From: Halalkalibacterium halodurans
GTDB lineage: Bacteria; Bacillota; Bacilli; Bacillales; Bacillaceae_D
Reading direction: 5' to 3'
Length of the DNA stretch: 32,000 bases
Assembly: GCF_004376175.1 (NCBI RefSeq)
Contig: NZ_SNUY01000014.1
Location: forward strand, 30,001-62,000
Part shown: one piece after another, positions 1-29,414 of the stretch
Layout: the number at the start of each line of letters is the position of its first letter
Numbering within the stretch: position 1 is the first letter of the stretch
Position numbers and translations under genes: made by a program
Notes under the pieces: generated by a model
Seen by the model: only the letters and a program-made list of their open reading frames with translations
Databases searched by the model: none
Told to the model about the DNA's origin: nothing

Positions 1-1274
1 TTAGTCCAATGCTGATCATTAATCTTTTCATTGTTCTGGGATGTCTAATCTACATGGGATGGCTATCCATATCAGTGCTCTTCATTGGACTAACATTTAT
101 GACGATAGCATTTTTTAGCTACCAAATGCTGATGAAGATAGCTAACAAATATCTAGCAAGTGCGAGAGAGGAACACGACTCACTTTTTAGACATTTTAAA
201 TCACTTACAAGCGGAACAAAAGAATTAAAAATGAGCAAACAGCGTCGAATAGATTTCTTCGATAAGCAGTTAACACCAACAATAAGGGGTGTTTATAAGG
301 ACACTGTAAAAGGCATGACAATATATACTGCAGCTGGAAACTGGGGACAAATGCTATTCCTGTTTTTTATTGCGCTGGTCATCTTCTTTATTCCCCAGCT
401 TAACCTAGTCAGTACAGAGATATTAACTGGATATACGCTATCGATTTTATATATGATCACACCTTTGGTTACAATCCTTAATGTCTTTCCAAACTTCGGG
501 CGTGCCAATGTGGCTCTTAGGAAGATTGAAAAGCTCGAACTCGCTACAGAGGATGAAGAGTTGATGAGCAATCGAGAACAGTTACCGAGTAGTTTTAACG
601 AGATCAGACTAATAGATTTAACCCACACGTATTATCGAGAAGAGGAAGATCATAACTTTACACTCGGACCAATCAATTTGACCTTCAAAGAAAATGAGCT
701 CATCTTCCTCGTAGGTGGTAACGGGAGTGGAAAAACAACACTAGCCAAACTGATTACCGGGTTATATGAGCCTGAAGGGGGGAGGATAGAGGTCAATGGT
801 CAGCCTATCACAGATAAGCACATTGATCATTACCGCCAGCTCTTTTCTACAGTGTTCTCAGATTTTTATCTTTTCGAGCAATTTATTGGTATCTCAGAAG
901 ACAAAGTAAAAGAGGAAGCGGAAGAGTACCTGCGGCTTCTTCAACTAAATCATAAGGTAAAGGTTGAAGAAGATCGCTTATCAACAACAGATCTGTCAGG
1001 AGGACAAAGGAAGCGACTTGCGTTGTTAGTTTCATATCTGGAGGATAGACCATTTTATGTATTTGATGAATGGGCGGCAGATCAGGATCCGCTGTTCAAA
1101 GACTTCTTTTATACAAAACTTCTACCAGCTTTGAAAGGTAAGGGCAAGACGGTGCTTGTAATCTCACATGATGATAAATATTTCAACGTGGCGGACAGAA
1201 TCATTAAGATAGACTACGGGCAAGTGATAAAAGATGAGCCTATTGAAGCACTATCACAGCAAGCAGCTGAGTAA
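1..1274 (+). CDS. ABC exporter, fused permease-ATPase of the cyclic-peptide / peptide-siderophore exporter type (SyrD/PvdE/YojI-like); 5' end outside window
   Basis: The frame stays open back to base 3, with no stop before the first ATG at 9, so the N-terminus is missing. Hydrophobic TM segments precede an NBD with Walker A GGNGSGKTT, ABC signature LSGGQRKRLAL, Walker B FYVFDEWAADQD and H-loop VISHD. It lies directly upstream of an MbtH-like gene. Confidence 0.85.
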   Translation, partial: SPMLIINLFIVLGCLIYMGWLSISVLFIGLTFMTIAFFSYQMLMKIANKYLASAREEHDSLFRHFKSLTSGTKELKMSKQRRIDFFDKQLTPTIRGVYKDTVKGMTIYTAAGNWGQMLFLFFIALVIFFIPQLNLVSTEILTGYTLSILYMITPLVTILNVFPNFGRANVALRKIEKLELATEDEELMSNREQLPSSFNEIRLIDLTHTYYREEEDHNFTLGPINLTFKENELIFLVGGNGSGKTTLAKLITGLYEPEGGRIEVNGQPITDKHIDHYRQLFSTVFSDFYLFEQFIGISEDKVKEEAEEYLRLLQLNHKVKVEEDRLSTTDLSGGQRKRLALLVSYLEDRPFYVFDEWAADQDPLFKDFFYTKLLPALKGKGKTVLVISHDDKYFNVADRIIKIDYGQVIKDEPIEALSQQAAE

Positions 1275-1353
1275 TCGGTGGGTTGCCACATATGCTATTT
1301 AAGTAATAGAAGATTCATTATACAGAAACTTCATTGAAAGGGGGTGATAAACC

Positions 1354-1563
1354 ATGGAGAACACAAACATCCAATATAAAGTTGTATACAATCACGAAGA
1401 ACAGTACTCAATTTGGCCAGCTCATAGAGAGCTGCCGAACGGATGGTTTGAGGAGGGTACGATTGGAGAGAAGGAAGAATGTCTTCAACGGATCGAGGAA
1501 GTATGGACAGATATGAGACCACTAAGTCTAAGAAAGCAACTATCTAAGGCTGAAGGCAATTAA
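1354..1563 (+). CDS. MbtH-like protein (NRPS adenylation-domain partner)
   Basis: The 69-aa product carries the family signature NHEEQYSIWP ... PNGW ... WTDMRP. SD GAAAGGGGGTGA lies 6-8 nt upstream of the ATG. Confidence 0.92.
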   Translation: MENTNIQYKVVYNHEEQYSIWPAHRELPNGWFEEGTIGEKEECLQRIEEVWTDMRPLSLRKQLSKAEGN

Positions 1564-1614
1564 TATAAAGCTTTATACATGTATTGATCTTTTAAAAAGG
1601 GGTGCATACGTGAG

Positions 1615-2040
1615 GTGAGCAACACTAGATATGAAGAAAAGTTACCTGATCTCTATTCTCTTAATAGAGATCAGGCTCAGCAGCATATTCTGAAATACCT
1701 AGAGCAGCTATTAATCGAACATACTGAATATGATGCGCAGCTCGAGATCGAAAATGTGAAGATCATGGAATGGGTACAGGACTCATTAACAGCAATTAAG
1801 CTAAAGGCACACATAGAAAAAGATATAGGAATAGAGATAGACGTATCTGAACTGTTTGAAGAGCAATCACTATTACAGTTAACAGCAATGATGATTGACC
1901 TCGTAGATGAACTGAGGCATTCATCCAGCTCTTCTATTGATTCGGGTGAGGAAAAGGATTTCTTCACTGAAGAGCTACAAAAGATGAGTGACGAAGAGAT
2001 CAATGAATTATATGAACAAATACAAAAAAGCAAGTCATAA
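1615..2040 (+). CDS. Stand-alone carrier protein (PCP/ACP-like) with N-terminal extension and acidic, Ser-rich C-terminal tail
   Basis: GTG start 6 nt after AAAAGGGGTG. The core EWVQDSLTAIKLKAHIEKDIGIEIDVSELFEEQSLLQLTAMM matches the carrier-protein helix II pattern (DSL with the phosphopantetheine Ser, then a hydrophobic helix). The tail is HSSSSSIDSGEEKDFFTEELQKMSDEEINELYEQIQ. Confidence 0.6.
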   Translation: MSNTRYEEKLPDLYSLNRDQAQQHILKYLEQLLIEHTEYDAQLEIENVKIMEWVQDSLTAIKLKAHIEKDIGIEIDVSELFEEQSLLQLTAMMIDLVDELRHSSSSSIDSGEEKDFFTEELQKMSDEEINELYEQIQKSKS

Positions 2041-2099
2041 ACGGATATTTTACAGGAAGAAGCTATAAATTCCTTAATATTGAGGGGTGAGATAAAGAT

Positions 2100-2837
2100 T
2101 TGCAGACAAAAGGTGTAATTGTAACAGGTGGTTCAAGGGGGATAGGAAGGGCAACAGTAGAATTGCTAGCAAGAGAAGGAGTTGATGTTGCTTTTACCTA
2201 CAACACAAACCATGAAGCCGCACAGGAAGTATGCGAATGCACAAAGCATGACAAAGGGAGAGTCAAGGGATTTCAAGCTAGTGCAAAATCGTTCAGTGAA
2301 GCAAAAGAAGTCGTTCATGAAATGACAGCATTTTTAGGGAGAATAGATGGCTTAGTACTGAATGCAGGAATAAATAAGGATATGCCGTTAATGATGATGA
2401 GCGAAGAAGACTGGGACAATGTCATTACTACAAACATTGGTGGTGTATTCAATTATACGAAGCCTGTTATTTATCAGATGATGAAGCAAAAGCATGGAAA
2501 AATTGTCTGTATCACATCCGTCAGTGGCTTAAAAGGGATATCTGGTCAGACAAATTATTCAGCTTCAAAAGCAGCACAAATTGGCTTTGTCCGTTCTCTA
2601 TCAAAAGAGGTCGCACGATTTAACATTAACGTTAATGCTATTGCACCAGGGTTTATCGAAACGGATATGTGGTCTTCAATTGCTCAAAAGCAGAGGGAGG
2701 AGATTCAACAGGAGATTCCCTTCGGTAGACCAGGAAAAGTAGATGAAGTATCAGAGGTGATTAAGTTTTTATTATCTGATAAATCAAGCTATATGACTGG
2801 AAGTGTCATTGTTGTTGATGGTGGCTTAAGCTCATAA
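2100..2837 (+). CDS. 3-oxoacyl-ACP reductase (FabG-type SDR ketoreductase)
   Basis: TTG start after GAGGGGTGAG. Cofactor motif TGGSRGIGRA, NAG motif LNAGI, catalytic S...YSASK. Confidence 0.9.
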   Translation: MQTKGVIVTGGSRGIGRATVELLAREGVDVAFTYNTNHEAAQEVCECTKHDKGRVKGFQASAKSFSEAKEVVHEMTAFLGRIDGLVLNAGINKDMPLMMMSEEDWDNVITTNIGGVFNYTKPVIYQMMKQKHGKIVCITSVSGLKGISGQTNYSASKAAQIGFVRSLSKEVARFNINVNAIAPGFIETDMWSSIAQKQREEIQQEIPFGRPGKVDEVSEVIKFLLSDKSSYMTGSVIVVDGGLSS

Positions 2838-2928
2838 CCAACAATGGCTATACATTGATATACGCTTGACTAATACAAGGATGGGCACGAATTGAACATC
2901 TAAATACACAAATCTTGGAGGGATAATA

Positions 2929-3180
2929 ATGAAAATTTTAAAGGAAGATTTAAAAGAATTAATCGTAGAAATCATTGAGGAAGAGGATTTACAAGATACG
3001 GATCATTTTGTTGACGATCTTGGTGTAGACTCGATGATGGCTATTGAAATTGTCGCACAAATCGAAAAGAAATATAAAATTACAATTTCAGAAGAATACT
3101 TACCAAAAGTAACTTCATTGAATGACGTTTATGAAGTGGTCACAAATATTGTGGAAAGCACTGTAGTAAAAGAAGGGTAG
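2929..3180 (+). CDS. Acyl carrier protein
   Basis: The 83-aa acidic protein has DDLGVDSMMAIEIVAQIEKKY (DSM with the phosphopantetheine Ser). SD GGAGGG upstream. Confidence 0.88.
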   Translation: MKILKEDLKELIVEIIEEEDLQDTDHFVDDLGVDSMMAIEIVAQIEKKYKITISEEYLPKVTSLNDVYEVVTNIVESTVVKEG

Positions 3181-3184
3181 CTCA

Positions 3185-4402
3185 ATGGAAAGAAAGAGAA
3201 TTGTCATAACTGGAATAGGTGTACTTACTCCTATCGGTTCAGGAAAAGAAGTGTTCTGGGAGAATTTATGTCAAGGTAAAGTTGGAACAGAAGAAGAAGT
3301 GACAGCCTTTAATACAGAAAAATTTGACTGTCATATTGGTGGAGAAGTAAGAGATATTGATCCTGAACAGTTTTTTGAAAAGAATGCTCCTAGCTTAGTA
3401 GGGAGAACGACCCAGCTAGCAGTGGCTGCTGCAAAGATGGCTGTCAAAGATGCTAACATACCAGATTTCTGTGCAAATGCTGATAGAGTCTCAGTTTGTA
3501 TGGGCACGACAATGGGAAACAATAGCGTGATTGAAAAGTATCATGAGAACAGTTTAACGAGTGAGCAAGAAGCGAGTACCGAGTATATGACAAATTATTC
3601 TCTAAATCGGTTATCTTCAGTCGTTGCAGAAGAACTAGGCGCAGAAGGGACATGTATGGTGGTCCCTACTGCCTGCGCCGCAGGAAACTATGCGATTGGA
3701 CTTGGAAAGGATTTGATTGAAGAAGGGAAAGCAGATAAGGCCATTGTAGGTGGTGCTGATGCAATGTCCCGTGTCATATACACAACATTTTCTCGTTTAG
3801 GTGCGATGGCTCAAAGCGCTTCAAAGCCCTTTGATAAAAATAGAGACGGCATTAATGTGAGTGAAGGAGCAGGAGTATTAGTTTTAGAGGATTATGAAAA
3901 GGCTAAACAACGAGGGGCAAGAATATATGCCGAGCTGCTTGGGCATGGATTAGCATGTGATGCACATCATCCCACAGCGCCTCACCCTGAAGGAGAAGGG
4001 GCTGAACAAGCAATTAAAAAGGCTCTCATCGACGCAGGAATATCTGTTGAAGATGTTTCATATATAAATGCACACGGAACGGGTACAAAAGCGAATGATC
4101 AAACAGAATCGATGGCGATTAAAAATGTTTTTGGCCCATACGCTGACCAAGTTCCTGTTAGTTCAGTTAAATCGATGTTAGGCCATACTATGGGGGCAGC
4201 AAGTGCGATAGAAGCAATCGTCTGTACCCTATCAATCTATCACTCACTTATTCCCCCAACGATGAATATCGAAGTTCTGGATGAAGAATGTTTAAGTAGT
4301 GTGGTTGTAAAAGAGCCTATAGCAAAGCCGGTGAAATTCGCTATTAGTAATTCATTCGCCTTTGGTGGGAACATTTCGATTATATCTTTAGGGAGTGTAT
4401 AA
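3185..4402 (+). CDS. Beta-ketoacyl-ACP synthase, KS-alpha (FabF / type II KS family, catalytically complete)
   Basis: Cys-His-His triad is present: PTACAAGN (Cys codon TGC at 3674-3676), DAHHPTAP, NAHGTGT, plus GHTMGAAS. It starts 4 nt after the ACP stop. Confidence 0.92.
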   Translation: MERKRIVITGIGVLTPIGSGKEVFWENLCQGKVGTEEEVTAFNTEKFDCHIGGEVRDIDPEQFFEKNAPSLVGRTTQLAVAAAKMAVKDANIPDFCANADRVSVCMGTTMGNNSVIEKYHENSLTSEQEASTEYMTNYSLNRLSSVVAEELGAEGTCMVVPTACAAGNYAIGLGKDLIEEGKADKAIVGGADAMSRVIYTTFSRLGAMAQSASKPFDKNRDGINVSEGAGVLVLEDYEKAKQRGARIYAELLGHGLACDAHHPTAPHPEGEGAEQAIKKALIDAGISVEDVSYINAHGTGTKANDQTESMAIKNVFGPYADQVPVSSVKSMLGHTMGAASAIEAIVCTLSIYHSLIPPTMNIEVLDEECLSSVVVKEPIAKPVKFAISNSFAFGGNISIISLGSV

Positions 4403-5659
4403 ATGATGAATGACCTACAGGATCCAATAGTTATAAGTGGAATTGGTCAGGTTTCACCGTATGGGATTGATAAGGAGCTATTATGGAACGTACTGTTTAA
4501 AACAAAAAGCGAAATTGATCAACTGAAAAAAAGTAGGATTGGAAACATTGATGAGGAGAATGGTTTATTCATTCCCTCCGATTGGAATCCAAAAGAGCTA
4601 TTAGGTAAACGTGGGCTCCAATTCTTGAATGCGAGTACTAAGTATCTAATGGCTGCGACTAATCTAGCTCTAGAGCATGCACAATTATCTAGCGAAACGG
4701 TAAATGCCGAAGAATTAGGAGTCGTTGTAGGCTGCAACTATACAGGATTAGCCGTTTCAATAGAATATGATCAAATCGCAATTACGGAAGGGCCAAGATA
4801 CGTTAGCCCAATGCAAGCTCCAAATATTTTAGCAAATGCTCCTGCATCTCACTTAGGGATTAGGGTACAGGCTCAAGCTTGTAATACAACGATATCTACC
4901 GGTCAATGTGCGGGCTTAGATGCACTCGGCTACAGTATGAACCTACTAAAAAGAAACAGGGCCAAATATGTCATCGTTGGTGGTGTTGAAGAGTTAAACG
5001 AAAGTGTCATACAGTACCTCAAGCGTTCGGACCATACTCCTAAGAATATGACTGATAAACAAGGGATACCGTATGCACCAGATTCAGCTGGAATTCTGCC
5101 TAGTGAGGGAGCTGTCACGGTCATACTAGAAAGAAAATCTACTGCAATCGATAGAGGAATCCAACCTTTAGCAGAGCTGGTTTCTTGGGATAATGTGTTT
5201 GCTGCACGGAAGGACGAATCTCATCGAGTTGCAGCGGTGAGAAGAGCACTAACCTCTGTAGTAAATGCAGCTTCAGCATCCATAGAAGATATAGGCCTGA
5301 TATTTTCAGGGGCAAATGGGGACTATGAAATAGATCGAGTAGAACTGCTCGCATTGCAAGAACTACTAGAAATGGGAGAAAAGCAAGTGAATAGCCCTAA
5401 GGTTTTTCCTATCAAATCAGTAGTAGGAGAGGCATTTGGTGCGAGCGGTTTGTTTCAACTGTCAGGAGCTTTAGGCTTTTTAAACAAAAAGAAATGGCCA
5501 AGCCCGTATGGAAATGATGCGGATCAAGTTGATCCAACCTTTGCCTCTCTACTGAACTATAATCAAGCGTGGACTGAAGAAAATGAATGTCCATATATTG
5601 CGCTTACTTCCCATAGCCGATCAGGAGAAACGAGTGCAATCCTTATTCGTTCAACATAG
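4403..5659 (+). CDS. KS-beta / chain-length-factor-like ketosynthase paralogue (active-site Cys replaced by Gln, both His lost)
   Basis: The ATG abuts the KS-alpha TAA stop. Thiolase-fold length, with STGQCAGLDAL in which Gln (CAA 4904-4906) sits 4 residues before LD, the position of the KS cysteine. The HGTxT position reads SGANGD and the GHxxGAAG position reads GEAFGASG. Confidence 0.8.
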   Translation: MMNDLQDPIVISGIGQVSPYGIDKELLWNVLFKTKSEIDQLKKSRIGNIDEENGLFIPSDWNPKELLGKRGLQFLNASTKYLMAATNLALEHAQLSSETVNAEELGVVVGCNYTGLAVSIEYDQIAITEGPRYVSPMQAPNILANAPASHLGIRVQAQACNTTISTGQCAGLDALGYSMNLLKRNRAKYVIVGGVEELNESVIQYLKRSDHTPKNMTDKQGIPYAPDSAGILPSEGAVTVILERKSTAIDRGIQPLAELVSWDNVFAARKDESHRVAAVRRALTSVVNAASASIEDIGLIFSGANGDYEIDRVELLALQELLEMGEKQVNSPKVFPIKSVVGEAFGASGLFQLSGALGFLNKKKWPSPYGNDADQVDPTFASLLNYNQAWTEENECPYIALTSHSRSGETSAILIRST

Positions 5660-5700
5660 ATTTAACAAGATGAACAGTGGAAAGAAGGAGTGGTATATGA

Positions 5701-6147
5701 ATGGATCAGAACCTTAGTTATGAACAAGTGCGATCTCTGCTACCTCAAAAACATCCCTTTATCTTCATAGATACAGTAGAGCAGATAGAGCCAGATAACA
5801 GAATTGTATGTGTTAAAAATCTGACAGGGAATGAGTGGTACGTTCCAGGCCATTTCCCTGACCAAACCGTTTTTCCGGGAGTGTTACTCGTTGAGGCGAT
5901 GGCTCAATCAGGTATTTTATTATACAAGCTAAGTCAGGAGGATATCAGTAGTACTGAGAAACAACAGTTTCTTCTATCAGGAGTGAAAGTGCGCTTTTTA
6001 AATCCGGCTGTACCAGGTAATCAAATCAGAATTGAAACAGAGTATGTCAAAATGACGGCAAATGCTGGGATTGTAACGTCAACAGGCTGGGTTGGTGAAT
6101 CAAAAATTGCTAAAGCAGATATTACGCTTGCAATATCTAATAAATGA
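5701..6147 (+). CDS. 3-hydroxyacyl-ACP dehydratase (FabZ-type hot-dog fold)
   Basis: HPFIFIDTV ... PGHFPDQTVFPGVLLVEAMAQ contains the catalytic His and Glu of FabZ. Confidence 0.88.
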   Translation: MDQNLSYEQVRSLLPQKHPFIFIDTVEQIEPDNRIVCVKNLTGNEWYVPGHFPDQTVFPGVLLVEAMAQSGILLYKLSQEDISSTEKQQFLLSGVKVRFLNPAVPGNQIRIETEYVKMTANAGIVTSTGWVGESKIAKADITLAISNK

Positions 6148-7886
6148 GGATGGATGCAATGAATAATTCGTTTAACCGCTTAACGGATGTTATCTTATCA
6201 AAACGTAACGTGCACGACAGAGGAATCACATTTATTAAGGAGGAAAATATAGAGCATTTCGTATCCTATCATGACCTTCTGGACTCAGCTCTATCAATCA
6301 CTGGGTACCTTCAGCAGGTTGGAATCAAACCAGGAGATGAGGTTGTTTTACAAACGGAAGATGTTGAGCAATTTGTATATGCTTACTGGGCGTGTATATT
6401 AGGGGGATTTGTACCTGTACCGTTAAGTATTGGTGTGAATAAAGATCAACGTTTAAAGTTGTTGAACGTATGGGAGTACCTCAACAACCCGTTCTTACTT
6501 ACGAACGAAAAAAATACCCAGAGATTAGTGCGTTTTGCACAAAAATATTCCGTCACACAGCAATTTAAGCCGATATTAGAAACAAAAATAATCATTGAAC
6601 AGGCGGTCGAACAGGGTTCACCTGGATCGGTTTACACCCCAGAAGTGGACGATGTGGCGATGATACAGTTTTCTTCAGGGTCAACAGGGAGACCTAAAGG
6701 GGTGGCACTAACTCATCTAAATGTAATGACAAATATTAAAGACATTATTAGTGTAGGTCGAAATAAATGGGCTGATGACAGATTTGTTAGTTGGTTACCA
6801 ATGACACATGATTTTGGGCTTATTGCGCTACATTTGTTTCCGTTAACAGCGAACGCAAATCATATGATTATGCCAACACAGATGTTTATCATGTCGCCGT
6901 TACTATGGTTACGCAAAGCGAGTGAGTATAAGGCAACATGTCTAGCTTCTCCTAACTTCGGCTATCAGTACCTACTTAAATATCTTCAAGCATCGCGACT
7001 GAATCAATCGAAGTTAGATTTGTCGTCTGTAAGGTATATTTTCAATAGCGCAGAACAAATATCGCCTCAATTAGCTCGGTTATTTGTTGAAGCGTTGGAA
7101 CCTTACAATTTAAAAAGAAATGTAATTGTTCCAGCCTACGGCCTAGCAGAAGCAAGCGTAGCAGTTACAGTCTGTGAATTGTTTCAACCAATGAAAACGT
7201 ATGCCATCTCCCGTGATCAGTTAGATATTGGTTCAGAAATTCAAGAGGTACAGCAAGGTGGACTTGAATTAGTTGATTTAGGAAAATCCTTGCCGTCTGT
7301 TTCTATCAGGGTTTGTGATGATCAAGATAATGACCTTGGTGAAGATAGAATTGGACATATCCAAATGAGAGGGAAAAATGTAACCAAAGGCTATTATAAT
7401 AGCCCGGAAAGAAATGAACAATTATTTACACATGACGGTTATCTTAGAACGGGTGACATCGGATTTATTAAAGAAGGGAGCCTTGTTATAACTGGAAGAA
7501 AAAAGGATTTGGTTATAATTAATGGTCAAAATCTATATCCTTATGATATTGAAAGAGTGGCAGAAGAAGTTGAAGGATTAGAATTAAATACGTTTGCTTG
7601 CACTAGTGTTTATAATGACCAACTTGGCGAAGAAGAAGTGATTGGATTTTTGTTACATAGAGGCGACCTAAAAGATATCGTTCAACTAGCCCAAAAAGTC
7701 CAAAAGCATATCAAAGAACAAATGGGAGTGTTGTTAAAACAGTTCATTCCTGTGAAAAACATCCCTAGAACAACAAGCGGAAAAATTCAACGTTATCAAT
7801 TAGCGAAAGATTATGTACAAGGCGTTTATGATCAACAAATACAGGAATTTAACAAACTTTGTATGCACGAGTCTACAACGTTATAG
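6144..7886 (+). CDS. Fatty acyl-AMP ligase / acyl-ACP-loading adenylate-forming enzyme (FAAL-like)
   Basis: The ATG overlaps the FabZ stop (ATGA). ANL core motifs are QFSSGSTGRPKGV, YGLAEAS, TGDIG, GRKKDLVIINGQN, plus the C-terminal SGKIQR. The N-terminal layout is typical of FAALs. Whether it is a true FAAL or a CoA ligase cannot be decided by eye. Confidence 0.82.
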   Translation: MRMDAMNNSFNRLTDVILSKRNVHDRGITFIKEENIEHFVSYHDLLDSALSITGYLQQVGIKPGDEVVLQTEDVEQFVYAYWACILGGFVPVPLSIGVNKDQRLKLLNVWEYLNNPFLLTNEKNTQRLVRFAQKYSVTQQFKPILETKIIIEQAVEQGSPGSVYTPEVDDVAMIQFSSGSTGRPKGVALTHLNVMTNIKDIISVGRNKWADDRFVSWLPMTHDFGLIALHLFPLTANANHMIMPTQMFIMSPLLWLRKASEYKATCLASPNFGYQYLLKYLQASRLNQSKLDLSSVRYIFNSAEQISPQLARLFVEALEPYNLKRNVIVPAYGLAEASVAVTVCELFQPMKTYAISRDQLDIGSEIQEVQQGGLELVDLGKSLPSVSIRVCDDQDNDLGEDRIGHIQMRGKNVTKGYYNSPERNEQLFTHDGYLRTGDIGFIKEGSLVITGRKKDLVIINGQNLYPYDIERVAEEVEGLELNTFACTSVYNDQLGEEEVIGFLLHRGDLKDIVQLAQKVQKHIKEQMGVLLKQFIPVKNIPRTTSGKIQRYQLAKDYVQGVYDQQIQEFNKLCMHESTTL

Positions 7887-7945
7887 TAGAACAGTTGTTA
7901 TAAAGGAGCATACACCTTATAACAATTGATTAAGGAGGAAATGCG

Positions 7946-9307
7946 ATGAATTATCTGAATATAAAGACTACCCTTCCGGGGCCTCGCTCCAAAGAAATTT
8001 TAAATGAAAAGAATTCAGTGGCAAGAGCATTCGGTACATTTGTACCAGCAATAATAGATTATGCTCGTGGTGCCCAAGTGTGGGACCTAGATGGAAATCA
8101 ATTCATCGATCTTGCTGGAGGAGTAGGTTCGTTAAACGTGGGACATAGTCATCCAAAAGTGGTTGACGTTATACAAAAGCAAGCGGATAAATTTACACAT
8201 ACAGACTTCACAGTTATTCCTTATCAATCCTATTTTAAACTAGCAGAAAGACTCTGTTCCAAAATGCCTGGAGTTGAAGAAAAAAAAGCATGTTTCTTTA
8301 ATTCTGGTACAGAGGCAGTTGAAAATGCGATAAAGATTGCACGGAAAGCAACAGGACGCAGGTCTGTCATTTGCTTTAAAGGAGCCTTTCATGGGAGAAC
8401 GATGCTGTCATTATCGCTTACGAGCAAGATAAAGCCTTATAAAGAAGGAATGGGTCCATTCTTCAATGATATCTATCGTGTCCCTTATCCTTACGTGTAC
8501 CGTTGGGAGGATAGGGTCTGCTCAGAAGAAGTATCAAATCGAGCAATAAAAATGTTAAAGGAATTGTTTGTTAAGCAGGTTGATCCAAATGATGTCGCAG
8601 CACTGATAATCGAGCCGATTCAAGGAGAAGCAGGCTTTATTAATCCACCTATGCCTTATCTCCATCAAGTTCAGGAAGTATGTAATGAGTATGGTATCGT
8701 TTTCATAGTCGATGAGGTTCAAACAGGATACGGGAGAACGGGATGCTTTTTAGCGTCTGAATACTATGGTATCGAACCAGACTTAATCACGTTAGGAAAA
8801 TCTATCGCTGCTGGCCTTCCGCTTTCAGCCATTATCGGAAAAGAAAGAATCATGGACAGTGCAGGTGATGGAGCGGTTGGTGGTACATTTGTTGGAAATC
8901 CGATTGCCTGTACTGCAGCACTTGCAGTGCTAGACATATACGAAGAAGAAAACCTAGGTGAGCGGGCGAATAAAATAGGAGAAAAGATTGATCAATGGTT
9001 GCATCAATTGAAGAATAAATCACACCTTATTGGTGATATACGTGGAGTAGGAGCAATGAAAGCTTTTGAGCTTGTAAGAGACCACGAGACAAGAGAGCCA
9101 GCAGATGAAGAAACGTATGAAATTATTCAGCGCTGTTTGCATAAAGGGGTCATTCTATTTAAAGCAGGATTATATAACAATGTAATAAGGTTTTTAGTTC
9201 CGTTGGTGATTACTGACGATCAACTAGAAGAAGCGCTAGACGTGATAGAAGAGTGTGTAATCGAAGTCACGCATCAATATGAACGTCAGACGGTCGCTCA
9301 TGGGTAA
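7946..9307 (+). CDS. Class III PLP-dependent aminotransferase (GabT / omega-transaminase-like); last codons rewritten by IS insertion
   Basis: SGTEAVENAIKIAR, DEVQTGYGRTG and PLP-lysine motif TLGKSIAAGLPLS. The final Gly codon and the TAA stop (9303-9307) are supplied by the IS6 end. Confidence 0.9.
   Translation: MNYLNIKTTLPGPRSKEILNEKNSVARAFGTFVPAIIDYARGAQVWDLDGNQFIDLAGGVGSLNVGHSHPKVVDVIQKQADKFTHTDFTVIPYQSYFKLAERLCSKMPGVEEKKACFFNSGTEAVENAIKIARKATGRRSVICFKGAFHGRTMLSLSLTSKIKPYKEGMGPFFNDIYRVPYPYVYRWEDRVCSEEVSNRAIKMLKELFVKQVDPNDVAALIIEPIQGEAGFINPPMPYLHQVQEVCNEYGIVFIVDEVQTGYGRTGCFLASEYYGIEPDLITLGKSIAAGLPLSAIIGKERIMDSAGDGAVGGTFVGNPIACTAALAVLDIYEEENLGERANKIGEKIDQWLHQLKNKSHLIGDIRGVGAMKAFELVRDHETREPADEETYEIIQRCLHKGVILFKAGLYNNVIRFLVPLVITDDQLEEALDVIEECVIEVTHQYERQTVAHG
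9295..9302. repeat. Left copy of 8-bp target-site duplication CGCTCATG of the IS6-family element
   Basis: It is identical to 11136-11143 and immediately flanks the terminal inverted repeats. Confidence 0.75.
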
Positions 9308-11135
9308 TGTCAAAAGTTCTATGAAAACTCACTAGGCATTCAGTTCTTTTCTCTTTTGTGGGTGGAGGAGCCCCGCAATCGCTCTTGACAAACACGCCAA
9401 TGGTTTTGACTAAGGCTAAACAAGGGCGAAGGGGACAAAAGAAGGCATACCAAATAGCCCTTGGTTATTTCCATTTTAAACCATTGGCAAGTTCGGTTTG
9501 TCAAGAGTTCGCTACGCCGATTGCTGATGTTAGGGCTCAGCTAAACAAAAGCTAGGCAGTCTGATCAATCAACCATTGTTGAGCTAAGTCAATCAGCTTG
9601 GTCCAGCGTGCTGGCATGTTTGGAAGTTGTTCTAACTCTGGAATGAGAACAGGAACTTTACCTTCCAAGGCTGAATGCGGTCTTAGAAAGTTGAAGTAAG
9701 CCACAAATAAGGTCACAAATGATACGGATCCTTGTTCTGACCCGAATCCGTGAGTGGATCGGTAGTTGCCTTTAAAGGTTCGATTCAGTCTCTCAATAAT
9801 CTGTTTTAGCGGTCTATATTCCTTGGAGACTTCATCTTCATTGGTTAAGCCGATGACTTGTATTACGTCAAATGGAATCTCATGTTGGGAAAAGAAATGC
9901 TGTGCTAACAAGTAGATTGGGTTTCCATCGACAACGAATGTAAGGTTCTCAGGAATCTCTTTCAGCTTAAGTAATACTTCGTCAATCGCTCGAATGGCGG
10001 TCGCTGTGTCTCGATTTGGTGAGACAGGGTATGAGAGAATCACCTTTTTCACCGCATCAAAAAAGAAAAACAGATAGTGCCAACGACCATTCACACGGAT
10101 ATACGTTTCGTCACCACAGAATTGATCTGAAAGCTCATAAGGGTAGTGGTCGACGTAAGGCTTAAGCGTAAGTGCTACACTGTTTTCGTAGTTTAAAATG
10201 CTTTGGTGAGAAATGGATACACCATGAATATCTTTCATCAGTGCAGCTGTTTTACGAGCGGATAGCCCGTAATTCACGTGATACGTCAGAATGAGTCCAA
10301 GTGTATGTGGAGACACATAAAGCCTTGATAAATCGACTTTTGGCTTCTTGGGTGAATGTTTCGCTAACGGTTGATAGTCAATGTGAAACTGGCGGTAAAT
10401 ATACCGCATTTTAAAGGCTTGAGGGTCTTCTTTGAACCGTTTTTTCTCTTTTTGTGACATTCTACTCAATTTCTTTTGGTAGTAGGAACAGTCATTGTTT
10501 TTACACTTAAACACATTAAAGTCTTTTCTTTCCTTGATTTTTTCAAGAGTCTTGGCACAGTGAGGGCACTTAAGGATGGCCTCTTTGAGATAGCGGCTTT
10601 TTTGATTAAAAAGACAGGAACACACCTTACATTGAAACTGTCCTTTCCCTCCATTATTGGCATACAAATACTCGGATGGAGCACCACACTTTGGACATTT
10701 CATTGACGCAGGAACAGGTGTTGAATTAGAACGTCTCTGTACCGGTTTAAGAGGCTTTCCATTCGCCGCCAGATGCTCAGTTAATAACTGTTTAAAATCA
10801 AGTTTTTCTGGTACTTCAATGATCGGCAGATCGTCGACTTGAAGTTTCCGATAAGGTTTGTTCACTGGCGCTTCTATTGGCTTATCAAACATGCTTTTCC
10901 CAATCAGTAGGGTAAGCAACGTTCGAATCATTTGTTCTTGATAGTTTATTAACATAAGTAAATAGGTTATAATTTGAGGTAACAACTTGTCACATCCTTT
11001 TTTCTTAAGGGGATTGATGTCGTGTGGTTACCTCATCAATACCTTAGAATTCAGGGGGGTGGCAAGTTTTTTGCTTATAAAGCCCTCTAATATAGGATTT
11101 ATTAACCTATTTCTATATAAAGTTTTGACAATACG
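9303..11135 (-). mobile_element. IS6-family insertion sequence (about 1.83 kb) with long zinc-finger transposase
   Basis: Terminal inverted repeats: GGTAATGTCAAAAGTT (9303-9318) against the reverse complement of 11120-11135, CGTATTGTCAAAACTT (13 of 16 match). It is flanked by the 8-bp direct repeat CGCTCATG and has a single DDE transposase ORF. Confidence 0.78.
9552..10985 (-). CDS. IS6-family (IS240/IS26-like DDE) transposase with N-terminal multi-CxxC zinc-finger extension
   Basis: The catalytic core GDETYIRVNGRWHYLFFFFDAVKKVILSYPVSPNRDTATAIRAI ... IERLNRTFKGNYRSTHGF resembles the DDE_Tnp_IS240 pattern. The N-terminus has CPKCG...CKVCSC and CPHCA...CKNNDC. Confidence 0.85.
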   Translation of the reverse strand: MLPQIITYLLMLINYQEQMIRTLLTLLIGKSMFDKPIEAPVNKPYRKLQVDDLPIIEVPEKLDFKQLLTEHLAANGKPLKPVQRRSNSTPVPASMKCPKCGAPSEYLYANNGGKGQFQCKVCSCLFNQKSRYLKEAILKCPHCAKTLEKIKERKDFNVFKCKNNDCSYYQKKLSRMSQKEKKRFKEDPQAFKMRYIYRQFHIDYQPLAKHSPKKPKVDLSRLYVSPHTLGLILTYHVNYGLSARKTAALMKDIHGVSISHQSILNYENSVALTLKPYVDHYPYELSDQFCGDETYIRVNGRWHYLFFFFDAVKKVILSYPVSPNRDTATAIRAIDEVLLKLKEIPENLTFVVDGNPIYLLAQHFFSQHEIPFDVIQVIGLTNEDEVSKEYRPLKQIIERLNRTFKGNYRSTHGFGSEQGSVSFVTLFVAYFNFLRPHSALEGKVPVLIPELEQLPNMPARWTKLIDLAQQWLIDQTA

Positions 11136-11159: not shown

Positions 11160-12632
11160 ATGATTCAAGCTCAAAACTTTGTTGGTGGTACTTGGAAGAG
11201 TGGAAGTGGTGAGAAAATACTAAACTATAATCCAGCTACAAGAGAGCCCGTTTCTGAAGCAAACTCCTCCTCTGAACAAGACGTTCAAGAGGCGGTTGTG
11301 AAAGCGGGAGCTGCATTTGAGCTATGGAGAAAGAAACCTGCACCTTTAAGAGGGGAATACCTTTATCAGATAGGAATGCTTTTAAAAGAAAGGAAGCAAA
11401 GAATTGCGCGACTAATATCACTTGAGGTAGGTAAAACGAAGGTTGAAGCAGAGGGGGAAGTACAGGAAGCAATAGATATGGCCTTCTATATGGCTGGAGA
11501 AGGACGGAGAATGTTTGGACATACGATTCCATCAGAGCTACCTGATAAATGGACAATGTCAGCACGAGAGCCTGTGGGAATCATCGGGGCAATAAGTGCA
11601 TTTAATTTTCCTGTAGCGGTCCCTTCGTGGAAAATACTCCCATCCCTTATACTTGGAAATACAGTCGTATGGAAGCCGTCTCCTGAGACACCAGCAACTG
11701 CTACAGAATTTACCAGATGTTTTGAGGATGCAGGCCTACCTCCAGGAGTATTTAATCTAATACTAGGGGATGCTCAGCCAGGTCAATTTCTTGTTGAGGA
11801 GCCGAGAGTGGCACATATATCATTTACAGGCTCAACAGAAACGGGAAAAGTGGTTTACGAGAGTGCTGCAAAACAGCTCAAACGAGTCTCTCTAGAACTA
11901 GGGGGAAAGAATGCGATTATTGTGCTTAAGGATGCCAACCTGGAGCTTGCAGCCGAAGGAATTGTTTGGGCTGCGTTTGGTACAAGTGGTCAACGTTGTA
12001 CAGCTGCAAGCAGAGTAATAATCGAAGAAGGCATATACGATCAATTATTACAAAGAATATTGCAGATCACCTCCCAGCTCAATATTGGTGATGTAAGAGA
12101 TGAAAATGTTGATGTTGGACCACTGATTAATGAAAATAGTATCGAAAAGGTAGAGGCTTATATTAAACGAGCTGTCGAAGAAAACATCAAGGTTCATTGT
12201 GGTGGAAAAAGACTAGAAGGGCTTCCGGGTCATTTCTTCGCCCCAACAGTATTAGGTCCTGTTGACCCAACGAGCCCACTCGCCAAGGAAGAGATATTCG
12301 GTCCTGTACTATGCTTGATCAAAGCACAGGGGTTAGATGAGGCAATTAAAATCAATAACTCGGTAAGCTATGGGTTATCCACAGCCGTATTTACTAGGAA
12401 CGTTAATCATGCTTTCACAGGGATAAAAGGGATTGATACAGGCATCGTATACGTTAATCACGGAACGACTGGTGCAGAAATTCAGTTACCATTTGGAGGA
12501 ACAAAAGATACAGGTAATGGTATGCGTGAGGCGGGACAAGCCGCACTTGATGCATTTAGTGAATGGAAAACGATATATATTGACTACAGCGATAAACTGC
12601 AGCGAGCACAAATAGATACAGATCTACTTTAA
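11160..12632 (+). CDS. NAD(P)+-dependent aldehyde dehydrogenase
   Basis: The 490-aa product has VWKPSPETP, the general base in LELGGKNA, catalytic Cys in GTSGQRCTAAS and EEIFGPV. SD GGGGGGA lies upstream of the ATG. Confidence 0.9.
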   Translation: MIQAQNFVGGTWKSGSGEKILNYNPATREPVSEANSSSEQDVQEAVVKAGAAFELWRKKPAPLRGEYLYQIGMLLKERKQRIARLISLEVGKTKVEAEGEVQEAIDMAFYMAGEGRRMFGHTIPSELPDKWTMSAREPVGIIGAISAFNFPVAVPSWKILPSLILGNTVVWKPSPETPATATEFTRCFEDAGLPPGVFNLILGDAQPGQFLVEEPRVAHISFTGSTETGKVVYESAAKQLKRVSLELGGKNAIIVLKDANLELAAEGIVWAAFGTSGQRCTAASRVIIEEGIYDQLLQRILQITSQLNIGDVRDENVDVGPLINENSIEKVEAYIKRAVEENIKVHCGGKRLEGLPGHFFAPTVLGPVDPTSPLAKEEIFGPVLCLIKAQGLDEAIKINNSVSYGLSTAVFTRNVNHAFTGIKGIDTGIVYVNHGTTGAEIQLPFGGTKDTGNGMREAGQAALDAFSEWKTIYIDYSDKLQRAQIDTDLL

Positions 12633-12950: not shown

Positions 12951-13030
12951 TTAAGCTGCGGCCTTTTCTCGGTATTCAATCGGGGAAAGGCCTTTAAATT
13001 TGGCTCTACAATAAATGTTGGGGTTTTCGC
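12951..13030 (-). pseudogene. 3'-terminal remnant of an IS3-family transposase (OrfB C-terminus)
   Basis: The minus-strand translation ends ...NIYCRAKFKGLSPIEYREKAAA*, matching the conserved IS3 integrase-core tail (YN..R...L.g.SP.eYr). No upstream catalytic region is present. Confidence 0.5.
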
Positions 13031-13119
13031 TCAAAAGAGGAAAAAAATGCACACAGGCTCCTTTATCCATTATCCTTGAATTGCCTAGAAACAAAGAAAG
13101 GATAGGAGCTGCGTGTACG

Positions 13120-13440
13120 ATGAATTTTACCATGGATTTGCCCGGATTAAAAGGTGTGAAGGTCACAAAGATGGAGGAACGAGAGGACTATATCGCACTC
13201 CATTTAGAAATGCCGCGAACGCCTCATTGTTGCCATCCTGTGGGAGAGAACCGAAAGAATTCATAATAATCGTATTCAAAAAGTTCAATCTCAAGCTCTT
13301 TGAACGGCGGATGTATCTCTATTCTTATCGAAAGCGCCGGTACGCGTGGTAGATGCGGAAAGCGGTTTATGTTGATATCGTATCTGGGAAACCGTTGTTT
13401 AGCTCTAAGGATAAGATGCTGGCTACGGTTGGCCAAGCTT
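13120..13440 (+). pseudogene. Frameshifted 5' fragment of an ISL3-family transposase
   Basis: MNFTMDLPGLKGVKVTKMEEREDYIALHLEMPRTPHCCHP.GE is followed, in another frame, by KFNLKLFERRMYLYSYRKRRYA and then a stop before CGKRF. This is the ISL3 N-terminal zinc-finger region, broken by stops and frameshifts. Confidence 0.55.
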
Positions 13441-13865
13441 TACCAAACCAATCGATGAAGAAGAAATTATTCAAAAAGAAGATCGTAGTCACGGAATGAT
13501 TCGGGCTTAGGTGCGAAGTAAGCAGGCGGATTCTTATTTAGGTACGTATTTCCAGATGGCCCTGGACCGAACGGTCTAAGTACTGCATTTTAACTCGGAT
13601 GCCTCCAAAGGCTGACCTTGAGAAAGAAGGATACGGAAAGTACAAAGAATTAATTAGAACACTTGGCGGTATGCCAAGTGTTCATGCGAAAAGTATCGAT
13701 TTCTGGCACTTTGCCCTTTTACAGAAGTGATATAAGAAATAATTCAGACTATAACCGATACTAAATCCGATCATCGGGTAACACGTAACGATTATACGTT
13801 CCAATCGGTTCGGAAAGTTAAGAAAGCGCTAACGATCCAGTAGAAATAATCATCCTATGAGAGCC

Positions 13866-16671: not shown

Positions 16672-17173
16672 ATGTATACGAAGGTGACACAATTTTTGCA
16701 AGAGTGGAAGGAAGAAGCATCGATAACGGAGAAAGTAATCGCAGCGTTAACAGATGAATCGTTAGATAAACGCTTTTCTGAAAACGGCCGGACGCTTAGA
16801 AGGTTGGCTTGGCATATATCACAAACGATACCCGAGTATTTAACGGAGTTTGGTTTTGAACTGGAAGAGGTGGAAATGCCAGCGAATATTCCAACAAAAG
16901 CGAAGGAAATAGCCGATTATTTTCGTATGGCTAGCAAGGCTGTCTCCCGCTCAGCAGAGCAGCGATGGACGGATGAATCGTTATCCTACGTCCAAGATGC
17001 CTGGGGGGGAACCGTTATCGAAAGCAGAGCTCCTCTCGCTTTTCATTAAGCATATGATTCATCATCGCGGACAGATGACCGTTCTTATGCGGCAAGCGGG
17101 GGTAAAGGTTCCTGGCTGTTACGGGCCTTCATTTGAAGAAGGACAAGAGATGGGTTTTATTCCGGAAGTGTAA
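16672..17173 (+). pseudogene. DinB-superfamily protein, YjoA-like, interrupted by a frameshift in a G7 run
   Basis: The N-part (16672-17049) and C-part (frame +1, ...PLSKAELLSLFIKHMIHHRGQMTVLMRQAGVKVPGCYGPSFEE) together align with B. subtilis YjoA. The frames switch at CTGGGGGGGAA (about 17001-17009). Removing one G gives ...DAWGEPLSKAELL... Confidence 0.8.
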
Positions 17174-26338: not shown

Positions 26339-27370
26339 ATGTTGTTATTAGAAGCAAAACAACTCGAGAAAACATACGGGGATCGCCAGGTGATACAGGC
26401 GGAAGAGCTCTTCGTCTACGAAGGGGACCGAATTGGAGTGGTCGGGAAAAACGGGGAAGGAAAATCGACCTTGCTCAAAATGTTGGCTGGCGTGCTAGCT
26501 TCAGATGGCTCTGGCTTTGTGAAGGCTTATGGAGACATCGCCTATATCCCCCAGCTTGAGGATCGTGATGCGAGCCTCGATGGACGAGTGAAAAAGCAGT
26601 GGAATGTTTCTCAGGCTTCAAACGAAAGGATGAGCGGTGGGGAACAAACGAGAAAAAAGATTGCCCAAGCCCTTTCCACATCGGCAAAGATACTCATTGC
26701 AGACGAGCCAACAAGTCACCTCGATTTGAAAGGAATTGAAAAGCTAGAAGCTGAGCTTATTCATTTTCCAGGAGCCCTCATTCTCATTTCTCATGATCGT
26801 GAGCTATTAAATCGTGTCTGTACGTCGGTATGGGAAGTGGAATCTGGCGAAGTGAATCAATATGACGGAAATGTGGATGCCTATTTACAGCAAAAGGAGC
26901 ACGAGCGCGAGAGGCAACAATTTGAATATGTACAGTTTCAGAAAGAGAAAAAGCGACTCGAGGAGGCGGCAAGGAAACAGAGCGAAACATCGAAATCGCT
27001 CCGCAAGGCACCGAAACGGATGGGCAACTCAGAAGCCAGGCTTCATAAGCGGAGTGTCGGTCAAAAGAAGGCGAAGCTTGACAACCGAGCCAAGGCCATT
27101 CGCAGCCGAATCGAGCAATTAGACGTGAAGGAAAAACCGAAAGAGGCCAAACCGATTCAGTTCGATGTCCAAACGTTTCAGGCGATGCATAGCAAGACGG
27201 TCCTTTCATTCGAAAATGTCACGATTCAAGTTGGAGAATCGTTGCTAGTCTCACGTATCTCTGGATCCATTCAACCGGGAGATAAGCTAGCGATCACAGG
27301 TCCGAATGGCGCAGGAAAGACGACGCTTCTTCATCTGATTGAAAAGGCAAACGCACCAGGTATAAAACTT
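26339..27370 (+). pseudogene. ARE-type ABC-F ribosomal-protection ATPase, N-terminal 344 codons (NBD1, long linker, Walker A of NBD2), interrupted by IS256-family element
   Basis: NBD1 has GKNGEGKSTLLK, MSGGEQTRKKIA and LIADEPTSHLD. A roughly 80-aa Lys/Arg/Glu-rich interdomain linker follows, then NBD2 Walker A GPNGAGKTTLL. There are no TM segments. The ORF runs 24 nt into the IS before stopping. Confidence 0.85.
27363..27370. repeat. Left copy of 8-bp target-site duplication TAAAACTT of the IS256-family element
   Basis: It is identical to 28822-28829 and abuts the IS inverted repeat. Confidence 0.8.
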
Positions 27371-27476
27371 GAGAGTATAAAATATTTTGTGTAAATGAAA
27401 ATTCCATGTAAAAAGGAAGACCCTTTCTTGGTAGAATAAAGTCACCATAACCAATTCTAGAAAAGAGGTCTTCCCT

Positions 27477-28829: not shown

Positions 28830-29414
28830 GCCAGACCAGCCGTTTTGGCAACATTTCATCAACGGCTCGAACAATTAGACGAGGAGCGCTCGATCCTAGA
28901 AAATGTGTCTGACTCAAGTGCTTATGAGGAAACGTTTGTACGGACGGTTTTAGCTCGGCTACTGTTTAGGGAGGAAGAAGTCCATAAAAAGGTCGGTGTC
29001 CTTAGCGGTGGTGAGCGGATGAAGGTGGCGCTAGCCAACGTTTTATTAAGCCAGGCAAATGTTCTCCTTTTAGATGAACCGACCAATTATTTAGATCTCC
29101 AGTCAAGGCAAGCCCTTGTGGATGTACTGCAAGCCTATCCCGGTACCGTCGTATTTGTGACCCATGATCGGCATCTCCTCCAATCGGTTGCCACCCATGT
29201 CCTTCCTTTAGAGAAAGGGGTGATTACTGAGGTAGGGAGAAGAACGACTGCACCTGTAATGAAAAAGGACAAGGAGCTCTTAACGATTGAAATCGAGTTA
29301 ACGGAAACGATTAGCAAGCTATCAATTACTACTGATGAAGCAGAAAAAGATGCGCTTGAGAAACGATATGAGCAGTTGCTTGAGAAAAAAAGATCTCTTG
29401 CAAAGCGAAGCTAG
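28830..29414 (+). pseudogene. ARE-type ABC-F ATPase, C-terminal 194 codons (rest of NBD2 and C-terminal extension)
   Basis: LSGGERMKVALA, LLLDEPTNYLDL and VTHDRHLL. The frame at 28830 is continuous with the codon ending at 27370 once the IS and one TSD copy are removed. Confidence 0.85.

Follow-up and report, generated by a model that had tools for sequence, protein, structure and literature searches.

A ketosynthase α/β gene pair in a putative highly reducing type II polyketide cassette of a nonribosomal peptide synthetase island in Halalkalibacterium halodurans

Among described pairs of an active ketosynthase (KSα) with a ketosynthase-like partner (KSβ, or chain-length factor, CLF), Iga11 and Iga12 reportedly form a heterodimer that has been shown experimentally. 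The Iga system has discrete ketoreductase (KR), dehydratase (DH) and acyl carrier protein (ACP) components, lacks a cyclase and makes a polyene-type acyl chain destined for amide linkage (PMC8358021, PMC7949117). The aryl-polyene pair ApeO/ApeC and the anthraquinone pair AntD/AntE are non-actinobacterial KS/CLF heterodimers of Gram-negative origin, and the Ape system is highly reducing and uses ApeI/ApeP-type dehydratases (PMC8358021). The heterodimer amxFabF2/amxFabFmut, encoded in the ladderane cluster of anammox bacteria, decarboxylates malonyl-ACP and forms acetoacetyl-ACP; in amxFabFmut the Cys is changed to Val and the His residues to Asn/Glu/Cys, and the KS subunit is structurally closest to the ishigamide KS (bioRxiv 10.64898/2026.05.19.726425). 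In the actinorhodin pair (PDB identifier 1tqy), the CLF has Gln at the Cys position, which is called intrinsic to starter-unit decarboxylation in a supplement legend (PMC6638757). Here we describe a KSα/KSβ gene pair from a 32,000-nucleotide stretch of Halalkalibacterium halodurans DNA (NCBI RefSeq assembly GCF_004376175.1, contig NZ_SNUY01000014.1, positions 30,001 to 62,000 of the forward strand), hereafter the window. We consider it likely that the pair belongs to a highly reducing, fatty acid synthase (FAS)-like type II polyketide synthase (PKS) cassette within a strain-specific nonribosomal peptide synthetase (NRPS) island, that its two products act as a heterodimer by the mechanism proposed below, and that Gln168, the residue of KSβ at the nucleophile position, is dispensable.

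In the list of open reading frames (ORFs), KSα (405 aa; accession TES55754.1) occupies 3185..4402 and KSβ (418 aa; accession TES55755.1) occupies 4403..5659, both on the + strand. The TAA stop codon of KSα lies at 4400-4402 and the ATG of KSβ begins at 4403, the very next base, such that the junction in the window DNA reads ...agggagtgtaTAA|ATGATG... or, with the stop set apart, ...AGGGAGTGTA-TAA-ATG-ATG..., and an AGGGAG Shine-Dalgarno sequence is positioned 8 nt upstream of the KSβ start. Both proteins contain the N- and C-terminal ketoacyl-synt domains (PF00109 and PF02801, respectively), with E-values of 3.6e-40 and 2.9e-38 for KSα and 2.2e-26 and 1.6e-07 for KSβ; given the length of the ORFs and the strength of these family matches, chance is no concern. 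The initial annotation had described a translationally abutted KS/CLF-type pair in which KSβ starts on the base after the KSα stop, and the TAA|ATG junction with its ribosome-binding site and the KS domains of both products confirm this. The KS genes themselves are intact. The two genes share one reading frame and are separated by a lone TAA; this is probably coincidental because they lie in different frames in the metagenomic relative L001 (65% identity). Natural KS-KSβ fusion proteins of ~800 aa are plentiful among the next-best matches of the KSβ family profile. Locus tags of the contig begin with E2L07_. GenBank lists KSβ as a 'hypothetical protein' and RefSeq names it 'beta-ketoacyl synthase N-terminal-like domain-containing protein'; a more apt label for TES55755.1 would be ketosynthase beta subunit/chain-length-factor-like. 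On the fabF equivalog model TIGR03150 (cut-off 493.75 bits), KSβ scores 138.9 bits and KSα 406.7 bits, both under the cut-off, and KSα barely clears the looser subfamily model NF005589 (388.8 against 387).

KSα has a complete catalytic triad comprising Cys164 (PTACAAG), His297 (NAHGTGT) and His334 (SMLGHTMG), and Lys329 is also present. The full triad assigned to it earlier is therefore intact, although HHPTAP, which had been counted among the triad motifs, is not one of them: its His261/262 align with the non-catalytic DAYH motif of FabF, and the second His is that of SMLGHTMG. In KSβ, Gln168 is placed on the nucleophile Cys in phmmer alignments to Thermus FabF (PDB identifier 1j3n) and B. 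subtilis FabF (PDB identifier 4ls6), and Gln168 rather than Cys169 also takes this place in a BLASTP alignment with the adjacent KSα and in a fragment phmmer search. Thus, the proposal that KSβ has Gln where KS enzymes have Cys holds in all independent alignments. The first His position of KSβ is Gly303 (FSGANGD) and the second is Glu343 (VVGEAFG), and no substitute His was found in the alignments at either triad position or nearby. Both catalytic His are lost, as had been noted, with the correction that the residue at the first position is the Gly of FSGANGD and not the implied Asn. KSβ retains Lys338, Asp311 and Glu314. In an AlphaFold2 model of KSβ (26 homologues; pLDDT 88.6, pTM 0.91), residue 168 heads a helix that follows a strand, in the classic nucleophile-elbow geometry. 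Foldseek searches with this model against a PDB library without 9s5h found FabFs as the best matches (TM-score ~0.84), with Iga11 at 0.81 and the actinorhodin CLF (1tqy_B) at 0.81. The model, which is confident, and the alignments together show a KS/thiolase fold in KSβ without a nucleophilic Cys.

Comparison with solved structures places the pair closest to chains B and C of PDB entries 9s5h/9s5i, which are held together in the entry and are reciprocally the best solved matches, KSα to chain B and KSβ to chain C. The best match of KSα is 9s5h_B (1.6e-111), followed by Iga11 (6kxd_A; 1.1e-95), which thereby outranks all FabFs (best ~1e-90) as well as the actinorhodin KS (3.5e-67). Using KSβ as a single sequence, 9s5h_C (3.2e-44) is followed by FabFs (2.4e-26 and weaker), the actinorhodin CLF (1e-17), 9s5h_B (3.8e-16), AntE (7.8e-12) and Iga12 (1.2e-9, over the N-terminal half only), whereas a profile of the KSβ family yields 9s5h_C at 4.7e-94, the best FabF at 1e-61 and the actinorhodin CLF at 8.5e-50. 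KSβ is thus nearer to ordinary FabFs than to the actinorhodin CLF in both searches, with 1tqy_B ranked under ~20 FabFs with the single sequence and under ~30 with the profile. Like KSβ, 9s5h_C lacks Cys, His and His of the triad and has Glu at the second His position, but it differs in having Val rather than Gln at the Cys position and Asn rather than Gly at the first His position. These matching features (Val, Asn/Glu and an Iga-like KS partner) suggest that 9s5h is probably the anammox amxFabF2/amxFabFmut pair. Between 9s5h and the preprint numbering, two of the three triad residues are offset by +5 and the third by +7, so the structure may derive from another anammox species. The anammox pair differs from the present one in belonging to a lipid (ladderane) cluster, in having the inactive gene upstream of the active one and in lacking an NRPS (bioRxiv 10.64898/2026.05.19.726425). 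Overall, the KSβ clade appears from these searches to be related to anammox FabFmut and to be nearer to FabF than to the actinorhodin CLF or Iga12. From this similarity we infer that the two genes encode the subunits of a KSα/KSβ heterodimer, a kind of enzyme pair that is already known.

The pair is embedded in a gene cluster of the following composition.
1..1274, + strand: 3' part of a cyclic-peptide-type ATP-binding cassette (ABC) exporter (permease/ATPase), cut by the 5' edge of the window; TIGR01194 cyc_pep_trnsptr, 393.5 bits against a cut-off of 286
1354..1563, + strand: MbtH-like protein, an NRPS adenylation-domain helper; PF03621, 8.6e-19
1615..2040, + strand: 141-aa carrier-like protein with a QDSLTAI serine motif; partial PF00550, 1.8e-06
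2100..2837, + strand: FabG-like beta-ketoacyl-ACP reductase (KR); TIGR01830, 275 bits, best matches all FabG
2929..3180, + strand: 83-aa ACP with a GVDSM serine, the elongation ACP; PF00550, 9.7e-12, conserved immediately upstream of KSα
3185..4402, + strand: KSα, predicted active ketosynthase; triad and Lys329, best matches 9s5h_B and Iga11
4403..5659, + strand: KSβ, CLF-type partner; Gln168-Cys169, Gly303, Glu343, Lys338
5701..6147, + strand: FabZ/ApeI-like beta-hydroxyacyl-ACP dehydratase (DH); PF07977, 1.1e-20, GHFP...LVEAMAQ motifs
6144..7886, + strand: fatty acyl-AMP ligase (FAAL)-like adenylating enzyme, starter activation; NF006624, 341.8 bits, under the cut-off of 600
7946..9307, + strand: class III GabT-like aminotransferase; TIGR00700, 525 bits against a cut-off of 507
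9303..11135, - strand: insertion sequence (IS) element with a transposase ORF at 9552-10985; 8-bp target duplication, weak IS6/IS66 transposase matches
11160..12632, + strand: aldehyde dehydrogenase; no NCBIfam model at cut-off, best GucD-like at 467 bits
12637..12922, + strand: frameshifted stub of the dimethylarginine dimethylaminohydrolase (DDAH)/amidinotransferase superfamily; intact at 293 aa in L001
13866..14549, - strand: Sfp-type 4'-phosphopantetheinyl transferase (PPTase); TIGR00556, 70 bits against a cut-off of 45, AusB/HetI-like matches

Domain and family searches found no cyclase, aromatase or enoyl reductase encoded in the window, no oxygenase in the same 32 kb and no acyltransferase in the cluster. 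The order KR-ACP-KSα-KSβ-DH without a cyclase or enoyl reductase points to a highly reducing (polyene/FAS-like) rather than an aromatic pathway. This resembles the Iga system, with its discrete KR, DH and ACP and no cyclase, although KSβ is only weakly similar to Iga12, which has Arg where KSβ has Gln. Asp113 of Iga11, implicated in product release, corresponds to Met110 of KSα; since the Asp113 equivalent is also missing from ApeO (PMC8358021), this residue does not define the highly reducing family. The Ape comparison extends to the dehydratase, whose orthologues carry precomputed ApeI-like/ApeP-like Pfam matches, but Ape-type aryl-starter and lipid-anchoring genes are not present here and the context is that of an NRPS instead; AntE aligns poorly and differs in having Asp in place of the Cys. 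As the residues at the Cys position of the characterised partners are Asp in AntE, Arg in Iga12 and Val in 9s5h_C, KSβ joins a highly reducing gene context and KSα with a Gln otherwise known from aromatic CLFs. A further likeness is to the cispentacin proteins AmcF/AmcG (KS/'cyclization factor') of Bacillus cereus and actinomycetes, a type II PKS-like heterodimer accompanied by a FabZ-like partner, an adenylating loader and an aminotransferase (PMC10698177); AmcG has no recognisable KS motifs, whereas KSβ has a full-length KS fold. A cispentacin-type assignment was rejected, with all NCBIfam equivalogs under their cut-offs (AmcF 254 against 325, AmcE 87 against 140 and AmcB 37.6 against 80).

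The DNA upstream of the window is visible in L030, a contig of SRR31300264 that is 99.99% identical to the window. The contig was matched through the MbtH-like protein; an exact look-up of KSβ in the contig index had no match. L030 encodes a 1057-aa NRPS with condensation, adenylation and thiolation domains (C-A-T), followed by a 2498-aa NRPS of the order C-A-T-C-A-T-TE (765-8261), where TE denotes a thioesterase, and, directly after it, the full-length ABC exporter of 533 aa. Hand-read specificity codes of the last two modules are DFWNIGMVHK (Thr) and DVWHISLVDK (close to Ser), and these modules are accordingly predicted to load Thr and Ser. The penicillin-binding protein PBP2 and lipase genes that flank the cluster are common to many H. 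halodurans genomes, including the type strain (BAB05613 and BAB05615), whereas the KS proteins are found only in this assembly and a few metagenome/SRA contigs, and the cluster has a G+C content of 36-42%, against mostly 42-50% to its right. The shared flanks, the confinement of the KS proteins and the lower G+C together suggest that the cluster is a strain-specific, probably acquired island. A blastn comparison of the window with L030 shows breakpoints overlapping by 8 bp around a 1.83-kb IS that is absent from L030. This IS interrupts the aminotransferase gene within its final codons, which are altered, and parts it from the aldehyde dehydrogenase gene, whereas the two genes overlap in L030. 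The DDAH-like gene, intact in L001 (16387-17268, 293 aa), has been reduced by frameshift to a stub in the window as well as in L030. IS-like debris follows the stub at ~12951-13500, where the L030 contig ends. The start of the FAAL gene overlaps the DH stop at 6144-6147 (ATGA-type), and the L030 call starts five codons later (575 against 580 aa).

The following mechanism is proposed from homology and gene context, with the sequence features alone being observed. The Sfp-type PPTase would convert the carrier proteins to their holo form, and the FAAL would adenylate a carboxylic-acid starter and load it onto the 141-aa carrier protein. This carrier occurs together with FAAL in L001, L030 and the window but not in relatives without FAAL, and it is the probable acceptor of the activated starter. 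The starter would then move to Cys164 of KSα, while the housekeeping FabD, invoked here since the cluster has no acyltransferase, would place malonate on the 83-aa ACP. KSα (Cys164/His297/His334) would carry out every decarboxylative condensation. KSβ (Gln168/Gly303/Glu343), presumed incapable of condensing, would serve as an obligatory structural partner that contributes half of the acyl tunnel and the ACP docking surface and would thereby help set chain length; its sequence features point most readily to a non-catalytic role in shaping the tunnel. In each round, the KR and the FabZ/ApeI-like DH would yield a 2-enoyl thioester, and since the cluster encodes no enoyl reductase, the product is probably a polyenoyl or otherwise unsaturated acyl-ACP. 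The acyl chain would pass to the upstream NRPS, where the first residue would be N-acylated, Thr and Ser added and the product released by the TE, and the ABC transporter would export the lipopeptide. The cassette thus probably builds the unsaturated fatty tail of a small nonribosomal lipopeptide. Literature searches found no characterised product of a Bacillales NRPS/type II PKS polyene system and none from this KSβ clade. The locus, in an alkaliphilic Bacillaceae strain, is an orphan hybrid of a highly reducing type II PKS with an NRPS and is a sensible choice for genome mining aimed at a new unsaturated lipopeptide.

The role of Gln168 can be approached through the KSβ family. A search with KSβ returned ~70 close homologues with 30-65% identity over the full length, from Bacillales (Metabacillus, Bacillus, Salibacterium, Brevibacillus, Cytobacillus, Gorillibacterium and Ammoniphilus) and, in greater number, from Ktedonobacteria. 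A KS/CLF of Ktedonobacter racemifer has been described as 'resistomycin clade' (Klein et al.); it may or may not belong to the family of the Ktedonobacteria homologues found here. The consensus of ~60 homologues at the site is G-Q-C-A-G-L-D-A-L-G-Y, and the combination Q/G/E at the Cys, His and His positions is seen in 63 analysed sequences. The Gln-Cys dipeptide, which had been considered unusual, is as the family consensus rather a hallmark of the Bacillales/Ktedonobacteria KSβ clade. An exhaustive profile search delimits a tight KSβ family of ~13 clusters at 50% identity, beyond which fusions and ordinary KS domains follow. Glu343 and Lys338 are nearly invariant over a much broader set of KSβ-like proteins. 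Glu343 (window 5429-5431), at the second His position, is kept far more widely than residue 168, including in 9s5h_C and many fusions. Residue 168 itself varies among clusters of the same architecture: five clusters that agree in core gene order have Q, S, Q, K and E here, with Ser in L001, the nearest same-order relative (65% identity), Gln in B. thuringiensis, Lys in M. arenae and Glu in the Cytobacillus cluster that shares the order from NRPS to aldehyde dehydrogenase. It is Ala, Lys or Ser in other Bacillales and Arg in the Acidobacteriota locus, and A, R, M, V, T and F also occur elsewhere in the family. Across the compared clusters, Gln or non-Gln at this position shows no correlation with the presence of FAAL or of a beta-ketoacyl-ACP synthase III (KASIII) primer. 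As same-order clusters tolerate Ser, Lys or Glu, Gln does not appear to be essential in this clade, and Gln168 is clade-typical, probably not catalytic and probably not required for function. These data bear on the old question of whether the active-site Gln of a CLF does chemistry, for which the Ser, Lys and Glu homologues provide natural 'mutants'.

The strongest alternative is that KSβ is a chain-initiation factor in which Gln168 decarboxylates malonyl-ACP to acetyl-ACP and thereby primes KSα, as proposed for Gln161 of the actinorhodin CLF and for the KSQ loading domains. KS-type decarboxylation uses both catalytic His, and both are gone here. The cluster moreover owns a FAAL and a loading carrier protein, the replacement of Gln in same-order clusters is independent of FAAL, and the nearest solved relative, which has Val here, is reported to decarboxylate (as the anammox preprint describes for its heterodimer), a finding that would make the α subunit the catalyst. 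The loss of the His pair, the dedicated starter machinery and the Val heterodimer together oppose an essential decarboxylase role, and the 'decarboxylation-associated' function given to this Gln in the initial annotation is doubtful. Chain initiation can nonetheless draw on a Gln that stands exactly at the nucleophile position in a Q-x-x-G-L-D-A-L context, does not vary among the Ktedonobacteria homologues, is frequent in Bacillales and is accompanied by the retained Lys338; many Gln-bearing clusters also lack a FAAL or KASIII primer, and the legend quoted above assigns such a role to the actinorhodin Gln. On balance we regard this explanation as unlikely. It is similarly doubtful, if conceivable, that the Gln-Cys KSβ clade represents an independent CLF lineage in which a convergent Gln primes a highly reducing PKS without the His pair, and that the island makes a polyene lipotripeptide X-Thr-Ser with an odd starter or first residue supplied by the aminotransferase/aldehyde dehydrogenase.

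The distribution of the cassette bears on its linkage to peptide synthesis. A scan of species-representative genomes found 25 loci, of which 15 are from Bacillales, eight from Ktedonobacteria/Chloroflexia and one from Acidobacteriota; the remaining one is a 370-nt contig fragment labelled Prevotella. The Bacillales loci are those of B. thuringiensis s1930, M. arenae, Brevibacillus, Tumebacillus, Cytobacillus (two), Lysinibacillus, Cohnella, Paenibacillus (four), B. gaemokensis and Shouchella. A Bacillus endophyticus KS/CLF had already been catalogued (PMC6638757). The view that such pairs are rare in Bacillaceae is correct only in relative terms: the pair does appear strain-specific within H. 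halodurans, but rarity has to be set against at least 15 Bacillales loci in ~14 species and the B. endophyticus entry. The order KR-ACP-KSα-KSβ-DH is kept in almost every locus of sufficient length, and the start-to-start spacing of KSα and KSβ is ~1.2 kb in related loci, which fits abutting or overlapping genes. The longer order NRPS-ABC-MbtH-...-DH-(FAAL)-aminotransferase-aldehyde dehydrogenase is shared by B. thuringiensis, M. arenae, one Cytobacillus locus and L001. FAAL follows DH in Cytobacillus (L009), Lysinibacillus, Cohnella and P. silvestris (L014), with more adenylation-domain matches past FAAL in all of these except P. silvestris; by locus, FAAL is found at the same position in L001, L009, L012, L013 and L014. 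Orthologues of the aminotransferase (71-84% identity) come after DH or FAAL in L001, L005, L006 and L026, and the aldehyde dehydrogenase adjoins the aminotransferase in these four and in L030, the pair having 67-84% identity in the four other clusters. This conserved synteny indicates that both genes belong to the cluster, where they may supply a starter or building block. The conserved order across loci suggests that the cassette is a recurrent acyl-chain-building module, often NRPS-linked. A KR-ACP-KS-KSβ(Gln-Cys)-DH cassette also lies beside plasmid replication (Rep) genes on Staphylococcus epidermidis contigs (L003 and L004; 61 index blocks, many samples); its neighbours are KASIII, a PPTase, an adenylating enzyme, FAD oxidases, a methyltransferase and a second ACP, and it looks like a different, pigment-like pathway.

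The remaining alternatives fare less well against this gene context. The cassette could be dedicated FAS-like machinery for a special lipid, whether free or of the membrane, in the manner of the anammox ladderane cluster, with the NRPS adjacent by coincidence; the closest solved homologues do appear to be the anammox FabF2/FabFmut pair, and the KR is FabG-like and the DH FabZ-like, but the order NRPS-ABC-MbtH-(ACP)-KR-ACP-KS-KSβ-DH is conserved in several genera, and in other Bacillales the cassette is followed directly by FAAL and then by NRPS adenylation domains, which makes this explanation very improbable. Still less credible is a minimal PKS of an aromatic, actinorhodin-like type II pathway. 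The genes have in common with the actinorhodin pair their adjacent, co-translated arrangement and a Gln in a Q-x-x-G-L-D-A-L-like context, together with a discrete ACP and a KR, but they differ in the absence of a cyclase, aromatase or oxygenase from the 32 kb, in a DH acting in each cycle, in a conserved Cys after the Gln and in the replaceability of the Gln. The cassette is linked to a FabZ-type DH in nearly every locus that extends past KSβ and stands in an NRPS context, KSα is nearest to highly reducing/FAS-like KSs (9s5h_B and Iga11), and the actinorhodin CLF is a weaker match to KSβ than FabF. The aromatic reading is rejected on the missing cyclases, the DH linkage and the sequence placement, and the parallel with actinorhodin-type CLFs drawn in the initial annotation does not make the system an actinorhodin-type aromatic PKS. 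That KSβ is an ordinary second, divergent FabF with Cys169 as nucleophile and overlooked His residues, the scenario that had been named as a possible refutation, has a highly conserved Cys next to the Gln and FabFs as the best Foldseek matches in its favour, but is effectively refuted, as every alignment sets Gln168 on the catalytic Cys with no His at or near the triad positions, the TIGR03150 score is far under the cut-off and Cys169 is replaced by Gly, Asn or Ser in several family members.

Several points weigh against our preferred reading of KSβ as the tunnel-shaping partner of KSα in a lipopeptide pathway with a dispensable Gln168. All Ktedonobacteria homologues seen and ~60% of the analysed matches have Gln, and such wide retention makes some selective value of the residue likely; Cys169 is conserved even more strongly than Gln168. 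The heterodimer is a prediction from reciprocal similarity to the 9s5h chains and to Iga11/Iga12. The view of the first NRPS module, and of any starter C domain, is incomplete, and the conserved aminotransferase/aldehyde dehydrogenase pair stands outside the proposed scheme. Cispentacin biosynthesis recruits the host FabI (PMC10698177), and by analogy a similar recruitment here could give a saturated chain. Finally, with an IS inserted and the DDAH-like gene decayed, the cluster may be partly inactive in this strain.

Other genes in the window are also interrupted. An ABC-F-type ATPase gene is split by IS256 into fragments at 26339-27394 and 28845-29414, with the transposase at 27477-28673, a GerA-family germination gene is broken into the overlapping ORFs 29622-30260 and 30097-31179, and a DinB-like gene is apparently frameshifted (16672-17049 and 16973-17173). 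The latter two genes, together with at least three IS elements, suggest either ongoing gene decay in the strain or sequencing errors.

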